Below are positions 4,311 through 40,362 of a stretch of DNA of 64,000 nt, in pieces. Where the stretch lies: positions 24,862,001-24,926,000 of the forward strand of contig OZ231126.1 of assembly GCA_965153355.1 (NCBI GenBank), written 5' to 3'. Numbering within the stretch: position 1 is the stretch's first letter; each line of letters opens with the position of its first letter. The notes below the pieces were generated by a model. It was not told the DNA's origin and did not search any database. It saw only the letters and a list, made by a program, of their open reading frames with translations. The position numbers and the translations under genes were made by a program. The stretch is from Flaccisagitta enflata (taxonomy: Eukaryota).

Positions 4311-5317
4311 AACGATCATGAAAAGCCGGAATATTCTTATCAAAGAATTACTTTCTCGAAAAAGTCTTAAGTCGATACCCACTTCTCATTTCATTCTTCG
4401 CCTCCGAAAGACGAAAATGAACAAAATGGAGATCCCTGCTTGTTTTATTTTTCTCATTGTGACGGTTAATGCGTTCTCCTTGGGTGAGCTAATTGTTTCT
4501 TAAAGTTCTTGATAAAGTTTGGATGGCAGCACGAAACTTATATTCTAAAGTTGTTGTGACTTTATCCATTATTTGATGCTAGAAGATGGATTTCAGTGAC
4601 ACATTTTTTTAAACCTGACATGCAAAATCAGATGCAATTCGTGATCTAATCAATGGAGAGCTTGAAACAAGGCACTATGATGAAAAGATCACCCTTCGAG
4701 AATACCTGGATAACCTGGAAGCGGTGAGAAATGATAATGCTTTGAATTGAAATGTGGGTCTAGTTCAACATCAACAGCCCTTTAAGCAATCTGATCGATC
4801 AGTTATATTTCACGGGCTAAAAAAATATAACAAAATAAAATTCTTACTGTTTGTTGTTGGAAAAAAGCCGAATTACGTAATTCGACTTCTTGAAATGTAG
4901 GGGAGAAATAAAGTTTTCAATTTTCATTTGGGGCAATTTTTGAAAGTTGTGCCATTTTCCAAGTGGGATGATACATTTTTTGATATTAACAGTTAAGAGA
5001 GAGCTAATTCTTTCTTTCATATGGCACCAACCAGAGGTCTCTAAGATCAATATTTTTCGAGCTATGATTTTTTTTATCTTTTTTTATTTTTTTGCATTTT
5101 CGCAAAAATTGAAATTTTTCATTGATCCTGATTTTTGGCCTTATGTGACAATGATAAAAGTCAGGATGTTACACAAATTGATTCCCAACTTTTATGACGC
5201 TAGCTTTGATGTTTTATGTTGCTTGAGAGAGAGAGAGAGAGAGAGAGAGAAAGAGAGAGAGAGAGAGAGAGAGAGAGAGAGAGAGAGAGAGAGAGAGAGA
5301 GAAAAAAAAAAAAAAAA

Positions 5318-6602
5318 CTAGTCATCCAAGGATCGCACATGGTCAGCGGTACCCGATGCCCTGCTGAGTGATCCAGTGAAGAAGTGGAGTGAGAGCAGGG
5401 CAGCGGCACCAAAGGGCCAATGTCCTGTAGAACACAGGGGGGAATTTCGAGACGTCCGTCCGTCCTGAGGGGGCTCTAGATGGCTGATTTATGCCACTGA
5501 AGGCATATCTGAGGGTTGGAGGGCATAATTAAGGCTTGGAGAGCAGATTTGAGGTTTGGCGGGCTGGTTTTAAGTTTGGAGGGCTAATTTAAGGTCTGGA
5601 GGGCAGATTTGAGGTCTGGGAGGCAGATTCAGGGCATGGGAGGGGGCTGATTTGAAACCAAGTGGGCTGATTTTAAGCCTGGAGGGCTAAATTGAGTCCT
5701 GGGAGGGCTAATTTGAGGCCTTGATGGTCAACGGGGGGGGGGACGGACGGAAGGACGGACAGAAGGACGGACGTCTCGAAATTCCCCCCTGTGTTCTACA
5801 GGACATCGGCCCTTTGGGGCCGCTGCCCAAAAAGGCTGGATACACGGCTACCCTAGTCGCGTGCGGGTGGGCAGGAGCAGTGCTGGACATCTGGGCAGGA
5901 GCCGTATGCTCAAAAAAATCAAAAACGCCGAAAAAGTAACAAGTCATCCAAGGATCGCACATGGTCAGCGGTACCTGATGCCCTGCTTAGAGTGATCAGG
6001 TGAAGAAGTAGAGTGAGAGCAGGGCAGCGGCCCCAAAGGGTCGATGTCCTGTAGGACACAGGGGTAAGCCGTTACATACGTCCATCTGTCTGTCCATCTA
6101 AGAGGGCTGATTTAAGGCCTAAGAGGGCTGATTTAGGGCCTAAGAGGGCTGATTTGGGGCCTAATATAGCTGATTTGGGGCAAAAAAAAGCTGAATTTTT
6201 ACCTGAAATTTTGGGCCTGAGAGGGGTGGTTTAGGGCTTGAGAGGGGTGATTTTGGTCCTGAAAGGCGTGATTCTGGACCTGAGAAGGGTGATTTTAGGC
6301 CTTAGAGGGGTGATTTTGGGCCTGAGAGGGATGGTTCAGGGTTTGAGAGGGGTGATTGTGGGCCTGAGAGGGCTGATTTTAGGCCTGAGAGGAGTGATTT
6401 TGGATCTGAAGGAGCCTTTTTGGGGTCTAAGAAGCTGGGGGGGGACATGCAGACATACGTACAAAACGGCTCACCCCTGTGTCCTACAGGACATCGGCCC
6501 TTTGGGGCCGCTGCCCAAAAAGGGGACCGACCAACCAACCAACCAACGGATTGACCGACGGACCAACATAGCGGGGTGTAGAGTAGCGTAGCACGCGACT
6601 AA
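5318..6602 (-). mobile_element. Nested cluster: two family-B elements (5318-5830, 5940-6518), the second inside a family-A element
   Basis: Family B has the inverted repeats GGGCAGCGGCCCCAAAGGG / CCCTTTGGGGCCGCTGCCC around a ~21-bp minisatellite and the terminal GTCATCCAAGGATCGCACATGGTCAGCGGTACC. Confidence 0.75.
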
Positions 6603-38400: not shown

Positions 38401-40362
38401 GAAAGAATATGTTTGGACAAACGGTGACCCAGTGAAGACCGGATTCAGTAACTGGCGCTCGGGTCAGCCTAACAATTGCTGCGGCGGTGAAGATTGTGCG
38501 GAAACAAATTTCGTGAATGCTGGAAAATGGAATGATCGACCCTGCGCAACAAAACAAGCTTTTGTATGCGAAGTTTCCTTGGGTAAGTACAGTAGATCTC
38601 GTCTAGACTTGAGATAACGGGGGCAAGCATGGTGGGAAGACGAATGAAAGCAGGGGAGCAATATTTGGATCATAGACTAATCAAAGGATGCTTAATTCCC
38701 CATGATAGCTGGTTGCCATGGAAACACATTTCCATGTATTGTCGCTAAAGTATCAATATTTAGAGAGATTTTTTTAGGGAACATTGCTTAAAATAAGATT
38801 TGCTACAACTTTCCCACAGTATGTTCTGTAAGAATGTCGCTCGTTTGGCCGTTGCTAGGGAGCATATCCATGAGTGACAACCCCTAGCAACCGCTAAACG
38901 AGCGACATTCTTACAGAACATACTGTGGGAAAGTTGTAGCAAATTTTATTCTAAGCAATGTTCCCTAAAAAAATCTCTCAAAATATTGATACTTTAGCGA
39001 GAATACATGGAAATGTGTTTCCATGGCAACCAGCTATCATGGGCAATAAAGCATCCCAGAATTAGTCTATTTTTGAAATATCACTCCCCTAGCTTTATTT
39101 GTTTTCCTTCAATGCTCGCCCCCGTTATCTCAAGTCTAGACGAGATCTACTATACTCAAACGAGTTCTTGAAATTATGACCATATTCCAACTACAGTTGG
39201 ATCTCACTGTAACGGATCCAAGAGTAATGGAAATCTGTAACAAACTTAAAAGCACAGTCTTTTCATGTCAATGTTTTTGATTGTTATGTTGGCAAAAACG
39301 GAAATCTACGTATAGTTGATAAAATTCATTAATCCCTAGACATCCGTTGTTACGGGGTTTAACTGTATATAATCGATTATTCAGCGTTGTGAATTACTCT
39401 TCAAAAAGTAATTACTAGTTTTGTTCAAACAAGGTTGGATACACGACCATTGAGCAGTTGCTAGCTGTCGCACAAGAGCCATTCGGTTTCATCCAAAAAA
39501 TCATGTTACGGACTTACTTTTGAACGTGCTGTTTGCTTTTTTGGCTCTCGTAGGCGGTTTTTAATCATCACTGCTCCTTCCCAAATACTTTTATGCCTAT
39601 TCCATCACTGCCCCTGTCCACGACTTGGGTAGCCGTGTATTCAGCGTTATTTACCAAAGAAATCTGTACAAGCAGAATGATTCAATTATCAGGATACCAA
39701 AAAGGCAGAGACGGATACTACTACAAATATCACAACGAGAAGAGAAGTTGGAGTGAAGCCCAAGCCGTTTGCAAGAGCGAGGGCGGGAATCTGGCCATCA
39801 TTTGGAATGCAGTTACTCGAGATATTGTCGGGGAGATAATGTCATACGGATGGATCGGGGTCACCGATCAATGGGAAGAACGCAAATGGCAAGGACCCAA
39901 CAAAGAAACCATCACTTACTTTGCTTGGGACTCTGGTCAGCCTCATAGAGAACCCACAGATGAAGATTGCGTCGCTCAGTGGAAAAATAAAAAGTGGCAC
40001 GATCACGGTTGCCAGCAGAAGAAACAGTTCATCTGTCAGCATGCAAGAGGTATTGTAGCAGAATCAAGGGAGACTGTATTGGAGCATCCTTTCTACCAGT
40101 AACTATAAATCATGAGAGAACTAGTAAGGAACTAGTAAGGAACTAGTAAGGACTGTCGGACAGACCGATGGACGGACAAAGCCTTTCATAGAGTTGCGTG
40201 TCCGCATGTAAGGATATCTCTCTCTCTCTCTCTCTCTCTCTCTCTCTCTCTCTCTCTCTCATTGCAAGAGTAACTGCTTCAATGGAGATGAGGACATTGG
40301 AATGTCCATGTAAAGGAGATGCAGGCGGAAGTCAACAACAACGTTCGTCAACTATCACTTAA
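29415..40362 (+). CDS. Copy B: intact secreted protein of ~705 aa; signal peptide, Cys-rich scaffold, two C-type lectin domains
   Basis: Exons 29415-29472, 29730-29821, 31264-31495, 32349-32563, 33088-33258, 34052-34235, 35319-35374, 35905-36083, 36617-36708, 37348-37547, 38393-38582, 39693-40049, 40271-40362 (last exon tentative). All are GT-AG with consistent phases; the total is 2118 nt with no internal stop. Signal peptide [19 protein letters not shown]. Confidence 0.88.
30447..31056. mobile_element. MITE with inverted termini
   Basis: GTAACCTTGGGGAAATAAAAAATGG / CCATTTTTTATTTCCCCAAGGTTAC; TSD unclear. Confidence 0.7.
31565..32172. repeat. (GTT)n microsatellite of ~600 bp in intron 3 of copy B
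   Basis: Directly visible; explains the poly-L/V/C ORFs. Confidence 0.97.
32617..32824. mobile_element. Small TA-flanked MITE
   Basis: GGGGTGAAATGGGT..GGGGTAAAAT / ATTTTACCCC..ACCCATTTTACCCC inverted ends. Confidence 0.65.
33449..33624. mobile_element. Small CAGT-ended, TA-flanked MITE
   Basis: CAGTGGGACCCCGC / GCGGGGTCCTACTG. Inverted copy at ~58007-58182; related elements at ~35566-35733 and ~39194-39365. Confidence 0.75.
34262..34406. repeat. (GA)n microsatellite
   Basis: Directly visible; others at 5225-5301, 6602-6686, 19112-19177, 35174-35267, 36732-36830, 53457-53518. Confidence 0.97.
37348..38582 (+). CDS. C-type lectin domain 1 of copy B (exons 37348-37547 and 38393-38582)
   Basis: [63 protein letters not shown] carries the canonical CTLD motifs WIG, QPN and WND. 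Confidence 0.93.
37572..37786. repeat. (GACA)n microsatellite
   Basis: Directly visible. Confidence 0.97.
38590..39152. mobile_element. Near-perfect 563-bp palindromic MITE with TA TSD
   Basis: CAGTAGATCTCGTCTAGACTTGAGATAACGGGGGC... mirrored around ~38870. Related termini at 55523-56032. Confidence 0.88.
39693..40049 (+). CDS. C-type lectin domain 2 of copy B (single phase 1-1 exon)
   Basis: [58 protein letters not shown]. Confidence 0.92.

Follow-up and report, generated by a model that had tools for sequence, protein, structure and literature searches.

Members of the mannose-receptor family are type I membrane receptors in which a Cys-rich N-terminal part, a ricin-type domain, is followed by an FNII domain and then by 8-10 tandem C-type lectin-like domains (CTLDs). 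The hallmarks of a CTLD are the cysteines of two core disulphides together with a WIG(L) motif, and a carbohydrate-recognition domain (CRD) in the strict sense is marked by an EPN or QPD tripeptide and by the E, N and WND ligands of the principal Ca2+ site. Collectins and ficolins are secreted proteins where a non-lectin N-terminal part carries a C-terminal sugar-recognition domain. Exon shuffling of phase 1-1 lectin modules is textbook knowledge and chimeric lectins are common in invertebrates. In bivalves, secreted lectins such as CfLec-3, AiCTL-9 and others combine several CRDs with differing motif pairs, including QPN/WND and x/WHD; as described in a review these proteins consist of CRDs only, none being described with a Cys-rich N-terminal body of ~400 residues, and the word discoidin has 0 occurrences in that review (PMC12842671). 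Here we describe a gene pair in Flaccisagitta enflata (assembly GCA_965153355.1, contig OZ231126.1, positions 24,862,001 to 24,926,000 of the forward strand), a stretch of 64,000 nucleotides (nt) that is referred to as the window. Copy A (4417-11723) and copy B (29415-40102), both on the + strand, have nine collinear exons in common which encode a Cys-rich body. After exon 9, copy A continues into one exon resembling an F5/8 type C (F5/8C, discoidin) domain and copy B continues into two CTLDs in three exons. The explanation that we favour, and consider fairly probable, is that the pair represents a tandem duplicate of a Cys-rich family gene whose ends gained lectin-type modules through phase-1 introns.

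Copy A and copy B are true paralogues and, from their sequences, most likely an old tandem duplicate. A tblastx comparison of 4000-12500 with the whole window gave a single collinear chain matching 29400-36700, with a summed E of 1.6e-172. When residues 1-426 of copy B were compared with copy A by tblastn, exons 3 and 4 were matched jointly at E 2.5e-48, followed by exon 5 (2.7e-21), exon 8 (1.2e-21), exon 6 (1.6e-16), exon 9 (1.6e-6) and exon 2 (3e-4). The short lengths of exons 7 (E 0.009) and 1 (E 0.92) do not allow a standalone match, and these two were placed by collinearity. Every matching block was read in three frames to set the exon boundaries, and AG/GT was observed at all internal boundaries of both copies with intron phases identical throughout. 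The exon lengths (A/B, in nt) are 67/58, 92/92, 232/232, 123/215, 171/171, 170/184, 56/56, 179/179 and 98/92 for exons 1-9. The exon-9 donors after 10516 (A) and 36708 (B) share phase 1 with the head acceptors at 11281 and 37348, and the phase-1 GT is located within two codons of the same place in the two copies. An earlier note, made from the letters of this stretch, had described nine homologous exons with matching splice positions and had given these donor and acceptor coordinates exactly; both stand. The conserved Cys spacing that it also described breaks down in exon 4, where the 92-nt deficit of copy A drops three family-invariant Cys. Beyond A and B, no further lectin or body exon was found by tblastn within the window, which is AT-rich (GC about 0.32-0.48 per 2 kb), contains many microsatellites and carries split genes of eukaryote type. 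The features of copy A are as follows.

4417-4483, + strand: exon 1, with ATG and a hydrophobic signal-like peptide, ending in phase 1; collinear with exon 1 of copy B
4632-4723, + strand: exon 2, with the family motif ITLREYL in an acidic segment; 92 nt as in copy B
7483-7714, + strand: exon 3, 77 codons with 9 Cys, 59/77 residues identical to copy B
7836-7958, + strand: exon 4, 92 nt shorter than that of copy B, with a frameshift and TAA at 7898-7900; the CYxY motif is missing
8171-8341, + strand: exon 5, 171 nt with 6 Cys; boundary corrected by eye
9079-9248, + strand: exon 6, 14 nt shorter than that of copy B, with a second frameshift and TAA at 9193-9195 in the entering frame
9838-9893, + strand: exon 7, 56 nt
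10031-10209, + strand: exon 8, 179 nt
10419-10516, + strand: exon 9, the final body exon, with the phase-1 donor GCAG/GTCAGA
10525-11140, no strand assigned: foldback element in intron 9, 616 nt, with arms of 184 nt that are 88% complementary and a 248-nt spacer
11281-11723, + strand: terminal exon, a probable F5/8C domain, with a phase-1 acceptor and the stop at 11721-11723

Copy B consists of the following exons.

29415-29472, + strand: exon 1, with ATG and a signal-like peptide
29730-29821, + strand: exon 2
31264-31495, + strand: exon 3, which served as the query that found the Cys-rich family
32349-32563, + strand: exon 4, 215 nt, full length
33088-33258, + strand: exon 5
34052-34235, + strand: exon 6
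35319-35374, + strand: exon 7
35905-36083, + strand: exon 8
36617-36708, + strand: exon 9, which closes the family body at residue 426, with the phase-1 donor GAAG/GTTGTT
37348-37547, + strand: exon 10, first half of CTLD1, with a phase-1 acceptor and a phase-0 donor; Lectin_C at E 5.5e-6
38393-38582, + strand: exon 11, second half of CTLD1 with QPN...E...WND, ending in phase 1; Lectin_C at E 1e-8
39693-40102, + strand: exon 12, CTLD2 (QPH/WHD) and a short tail, with the stop at 40100-40102; Lectin_C at E 9e-18

Copy B is intact and its 12 exons form an open frame of 2079 nt, which corresponds to 692 residues and a stop. The gene had earlier been drawn to 40362, but the frame stops at 40100-40102 and nothing coding was found in 40102-40362; an AATAAA is located past the stop at 40403.

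The body belongs to a hitherto undescribed family whose members are disulphide-rich, presumably secreted and about 415-510 residues long. An exhaustive search with a hidden Markov model (HMM) of exon 3 over 1.84 billion representatives found 29 proteins at E <= 1e-3, where 8 were full length (414-510 residues) and 21 were fragments (79-229 residues), the longest having 510 residues. A word-indexed profile search (227-893 residues) listed 10 matches and added four full-length relatives of 426-466 residues; no Pfam domain was present in any of its matches and none was longer than 466 residues. This search missed several members of its own query, and its lack of head-bearing forms carries little weight. 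Longer proteins were also sought with exon 3 in a word-indexed search and none came up, a blank that reflects a limit of sensitivity since the exhaustive HMM search found 29 relatives. All the relatives (P0014-P0050 and L001-L004) come from environmental assemblies (JGI/IMG, Logan, MERC and ENA), on contigs of ~1-2.4 kb, and carry no informative name.

Residues 1-425 of copy B align end-to-end with residues 1-426 of the 426-residue relative P0046 (46% identity, E 4e-121). Family-wide features (alignment A2) are the signal peptide, the ITLREYL motif within an acidic segment and 36 Cys columns without variation, and for copy A the end-to-end similarity is confined to its retained parts. Both copies start with a hydrophobic signal-like N-terminus and therefore look secreted, and 44 Cys are present in mature B, in agreement with the secreted, Cys-rich protein that had been proposed from the letters. 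In all 12 full-length relatives, as well as in the cluster member P0031, the C-terminus is located 0-27 residues past the last L-x-C-x-C motif, which marks the end of exon 9. The part that the earlier note called a stalk is thus the entire protein in these 12 relatives. Past the same motif, copy B runs on for 266 residues and the model of copy A for ~148 residues. No terminal lectin head was found in any of the 12 full-length relatives. Furthermore, the four JGI contigs (DNA) are intronless and transcript-like, each with a 5' untranslated region (UTR), an open reading frame (ORF) of 433-452 residues, a stop and a 3' UTR, one of them having a terminal A-run, and lectin similarity was found downstream of the ORF in none of the four. 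One relative, P0014 (510 residues), has a PAN_4 domain inserted at residues 269-315 (E 6.8e-8), at a point that corresponds to the interior of exon 6, and the family therefore accepts extra modules.

No described domain was recognised in the body. Pfam searches gave nothing beyond a chance-level zf-CW for the body exons taken singly, and nothing beyond PAN_4 in P0014 and two chance-level DUFs for 8 full-length relatives. Searches of the PDB by sequence gave chance matches only for exons 3, 4 and 8 and 0 matches at E <= 10 for the family profile, and no usable neighbour of the body family was returned by a language-model search. A match to a known fold was likewise not found for the family. An AlphaFold2 (AF2) model of P0046 was obtained with a mean predicted local distance difference test (pLDDT) of 80.9 and a predicted template-modelling score (pTM) of 0.38 and comprises about nine hairpins; by analogy with this 46%-identical relative, the body of copy B most likely forms an elongated rod of small beta-hairpin modules. 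The middle of one relative (L003 631-891) weakly matched residues 321-412 of copy B (the exon 7-9 part) at E 0.006, with 28% identity over 95 residues, which hints at an origin of the body through internal duplication of Cys modules. As a separate observation, the exon-3 homologue in P0002, a genomic fragment on an ENA contig (152 residues), breaks off at both ends of exon 3 (PHPLY... to ...NKG). Since these break-off points match exon 3, intron positions seem to be conserved in another genome.

Three exons of copy B form the C-type lectin heads. Pfam Lectin_C (PF00059) was matched above its cut-off of 22.6 bits in each of them, with 27.5 bits at 37350-37547, 36.3 bits at 38393-38581 and 65.4 bits at 39695-40099, so the two-exon CTLD followed by a one-exon CTLD that had been read from the letters is upheld. 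CTLD1 (exons 10 and 11) is a symmetrical phase 1-1 cassette of 390 nt. It had been claimed that each CTLD is bounded by phase-1 introns, which is true of CTLD1; CTLD2 runs to the stop, and a phase-1 GT at 40050 that would make it a 1-1 cassette of 357 nt is only a potential boundary. There are 6 Cys in CTLD1 and 4 in CTLD2, and WIGATD and WIGVTD are present in the translation. Read in the translation, CTLD1 has QPN...E...N...WND, where all five ligand positions of the principal Ca2+/sugar site are filled and the tripeptide is a hybrid. Because all five residues are kept, CTLD1 is predicted to bind sugar in a Ca2+-dependent manner. The corresponding residues of CTLD2, QPH...E...WHD, are non-canonical. 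The closest solved sequences to CTLD2 are the CTLDs of the PLA2 receptor (E 1.6e-21) and the mannose receptor (E 2.5e-20), and its matches also include DEC-205, SP-D and MBP. Both QPN/WND and x/WHD pairs are listed among Ca2+-dependent bivalve C-type lectins in the review (PMC12842671).

Copy B can be compared with the known systems at several points. Members of the mannose-receptor family (PLA2 receptor, MRC1, MRC2 and DEC-205) provide the best solved-sequence matches of CTLD2 (E 1.6e-21 to about 5e-13), and they likewise place tandem CTLDs after a Cys-rich N-terminal part; however, copy B has no transmembrane segment and no FNII domain, its Cys-rich body is unrelated and its CTLDs are two in number. 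Collectins and ficolins resemble copy B in being secreted and in combining an N-terminal part that is not a lectin with a sugar-recognition domain at the C-terminus, and SP-D and mannose-binding protein are among the solved structures matched by CTLD2. In contrast to these proteins, the translation of copy B contains no collagen Gly-X-Y run in its 692 residues and no neck coiled coil, it has two tandem CTLDs rather than one, and its body is an autonomous protein elsewhere. No Collagen match was found by Pfam on any exon. Since neither a collagen-like stretch nor another known oligomerising element was found, the likeness to collectins and ficolins that the earlier note suggested is a loose one. 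No description of this body-plus-head architecture was found in the literature at the level of listings and abstracts. What is new is the undescribed partner family and a head-bearing architecture that was not found among its relatives.

The terminal exon of copy A, an uninterrupted frame of 146 codons, is probably a divergent galactose-binding-like (F5/8C) domain. In the language-model search, 10/10 of the best family-bearing neighbours were F5/8C or NedA-like clusters, with scores of 0.96-0.97. Two relatives of the exon were found, with 71% and 67% identity and the same ...VDVKMYG C-terminus. Weak F5/8C matches were given by Pfam in 3/3 of these sequences (the exon and its two relatives), all of them sub-threshold and the best at E 0.0017, and the best PDB profile match was the C-terminal region of a GH92 mannosidase (E 0.013). 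A scan of JGI metagenomes with the F5/8C-like alignment found no relative. The exon thus resembles F5/8 type C (discoidin)/CBM32-type domains in its weak Pfam matches, in its language-model neighbours from the same clan and in the GH92 profile match, whereas its Pfam score is below the cut-off and the fold is a putative one. The F5/8C-like reading that the earlier note gave of this exon is probable rather than certain.

Copy A is damaged as assembled. Its exons total 1631 nt, a length not divisible by 3, and translation stops after 151 codons. The deficits of 92 nt and 14 nt shift the frame, so copy A is not an open gene in the assembly. Three Cys and two Tyr that are invariant in the family alignment fall in the 92-nt gap. 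No copy of the missing segment of exon 4 was found elsewhere in the A locus by tblastn, neither gap is located in a homopolymer or microsatellite, and the window contains no N. Two ways around the damage of exon 4 were considered and rejected. An internal GT..AG of ~35 nt in exon 4, judged by eye, is too short for a spliceosomal intron as these are generally known, and an alternative donor of exon 4, also judged by eye, results in a phase that misfits exon 5. Joint skipping of exons 4-6, from phase 1 to phase 1, would keep the frame at the cost of a large part of the conserved core.

The retained parts of copy A are not relaxed in comparison with copy B. The ratio of nonsynonymous to synonymous substitution rates (dN/dS) between A and B is 0.126 over 281 alignable codons, with a saturated dS of about 1.55. 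As an example, the first 20 codons of exon 4 encode a protein segment identical to that of copy B (20/20) while 84% of the synonymous sites are different. Against 9 outgroup relatives, the summed scores of the retained exons are 693-927 for A and 685-910 for B. As the retained exons of A are as conserved as those of B and dN/dS is low, purifying selection would have acted for nearly all of the history of copy A. Copy A was most likely once functional, and its breaks look recent, or specific to an allele or haplotype, or due to an assembly fault; it would thus be a recent pseudogene or a null allele in this assembly.

The favoured explanation can be set out as a series of steps. The starting point would be a gene for a complete secreted Cys-rich protein without a terminal lectin head, which was tandemly duplicated. 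In this lineage, a phase-1 splice donor would have replaced the ancestral stop after the last Cys motif, and copy B would have been extended into two CTLDs and copy A into one F5/8C-like domain of galactose-binding type. The product of copy B would be a secreted elongated rod with two C-terminal CTLDs, of which CTLD1 is the predicted Ca2+-dependent sugar binder. The body of copy A with its discoidin-like head would have been under purifying selection for most of its history and then recently disabled. The probable role of the heads is to direct the body protein to glycans or to cross-link it with them, whether in immune recognition, in mucus or in matrix.

Several points weigh against this account. 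The Pfam F5_F8_type_C model (PF00754) matched the last exon of copy A at E 0.008 and 16.7 bits, below its cut-off of 28.2, and a single-sequence AF2 model of that exon had a pLDDT of 35.5 and is unusable for the fold. The donor of copy B, GTTGTT, is a weak match to the commonly known donor consensus. All relatives found are headless, and the fusion is without precedent among the sequences reached; annotated animal proteomes seem to be poorly represented in the libraries searched, and these could hold head-bearing relatives. The body-head junctions are read from genomic sequence alone, the suggested role in glycan recognition or cross-linking is deduced from domain identity, and the two deletions of copy A could be an assembly or haplotype artefact.

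The weak donor, the end of every relative at the exon-9 motif and the foldback, which starts 8 nt past the exon-9 donor of copy A and occupies most of intron 9, would suit a quite improbable alternative in which each gene is headless and ends at exon 9, the lectin exons downstream are parts or remnants of a separate lectin gene and the match in phase is coincidental. However, if left unspliced, copy B would continue for ~50 more codons, mostly (GA)n microsatellite, to a stop at 36858-36860 and copy A for ~32 more codons into the foldback; neither continuation resembles the ends of the relatives, and the ancestral stop after the last Cys motif is lost in both copies. The phase-1 GT at nearly the same codon in the two copies also speaks against coincidence. 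Furthermore, the head exons have strong acceptors and frames that are open in the matching phase: the CTLD1 frame, which lacks a Met, opens just 12 nt upstream of its acceptor, a signal peptide is missing from the F5/8C exon, and each head is without its own start codon or signal exon. The CTLDs above the Pfam threshold and the conservation of the F5/8C-like exon in its relatives (67-71%) speak against decay of the head exons into remnants. For both copies we infer that the body is spliced to its head. A search of sequencing runs gave four metatranscriptome runs with just 0.05-0.07 of the sampled query words, shares that might equally stem from the 616-nt (GTT)n tract and other microsatellites of the query, together with one poly(A) RNA run from the organism; nothing is drawn from these shares. 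No second copy of the 616-nt foldback was found in the window.

A larger proposal, which we regard as unlikely, is that the body is the constant scaffold of a modular family with interchangeable heads, a genome-wide shuffling system that would be a functional analogue of collectins and ficolins. This was the idea of the earlier note, and in its favour two different lectin-type modules are located at the same phase-1 position. The symmetrical cassette of CTLD1 (390 nt), the potential one of CTLD2 (357 nt), the PAN_4 insertion in the P0014 body (E 6.8e-8) and the elongated hairpin chain of the body model are also what such a system might contain. On the other hand, a C-terminal head was found in 0/12 full-length relatives and 0/4 transcript-like contigs, just two head types are seen, both in the window, one of the two genes is broken, and no oligomerising element was identified. 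In its widest and equally unlikely form, the proposal would make the body an undescribed, widely expressed marine-animal scaffold, serving as a lineage-specific platform for phase-1-spliced CTLD-pair, discoidin-like and PAN modules, which would parallel collectins and ficolins without being collagen-based and would have further head types elsewhere in the genome. It is also doubtful, though compatible with the lectin-capture account that we favour, that copy A is intact in the organism and that its 92-nt and 14-nt gaps are assembly errors or mark a null haplotype. Retained exons that are unrelaxed relative to copy B, the low dN/dS, the uninterrupted 146-codon F5/8C-like exon and the 20/20 identity at the start of exon 4 despite saturated synonymous sites would be expected of an intact gene, but two independent frame-breaking gaps outside homopolymers and microsatellites, in a window without N and in a locus where the missing segment was found nowhere else, speak against it.

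Under the account of lectin capture at the ends of a duplicated gene, a nameless family that is conserved and evidently expressed in marine samples is pinned to a genomic locus with a full exon map. The pair would provide a natural example in which two different lectin-type domains were added to the end of a once complete protein at one and the same phase-1 position, and thereby a case of domain accretion that is dated and open to testing. Should the head-bearing forms be functional, they would offer a first functional handle on the body family, which is targeting to glycans. The gene pair alone does not open a long-standing question.

Some further features of the locus were also observed. A tract of 105 nt in exon 3, at 7591-7695 in copy A and 31372-31476 in copy B, has <=3 mismatches and includes 58 consecutive identical bases; with synonymous sites saturated elsewhere, it looks like a gene-conversion tract or the result of constraint at the nucleotide level. 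An element in intron 8 of copy A at 10255-10347 (- strand) recurs downstream of copy B at 41098-41190 (+ strand), with 77% identity over 31 codons by tblastx, and this repeated element accounts for a weak spurious F5/8C match at 10292-10387. The introns of copy B contain the microsatellites (GTT)206 at 31565-32180, (AG)72 at 34262-34406, (AG)47 at 35174-35267, (GA)51 at 36732-36833, (GACA)56 at 37565-37787 and (CA)42 at 37879-37963. Between the two genes, a 162-bp satellite is present at 17161-18229 in 6.6 copies with 89% matches, followed by 28 copies of a 13-bp repeat at 18332-18695.

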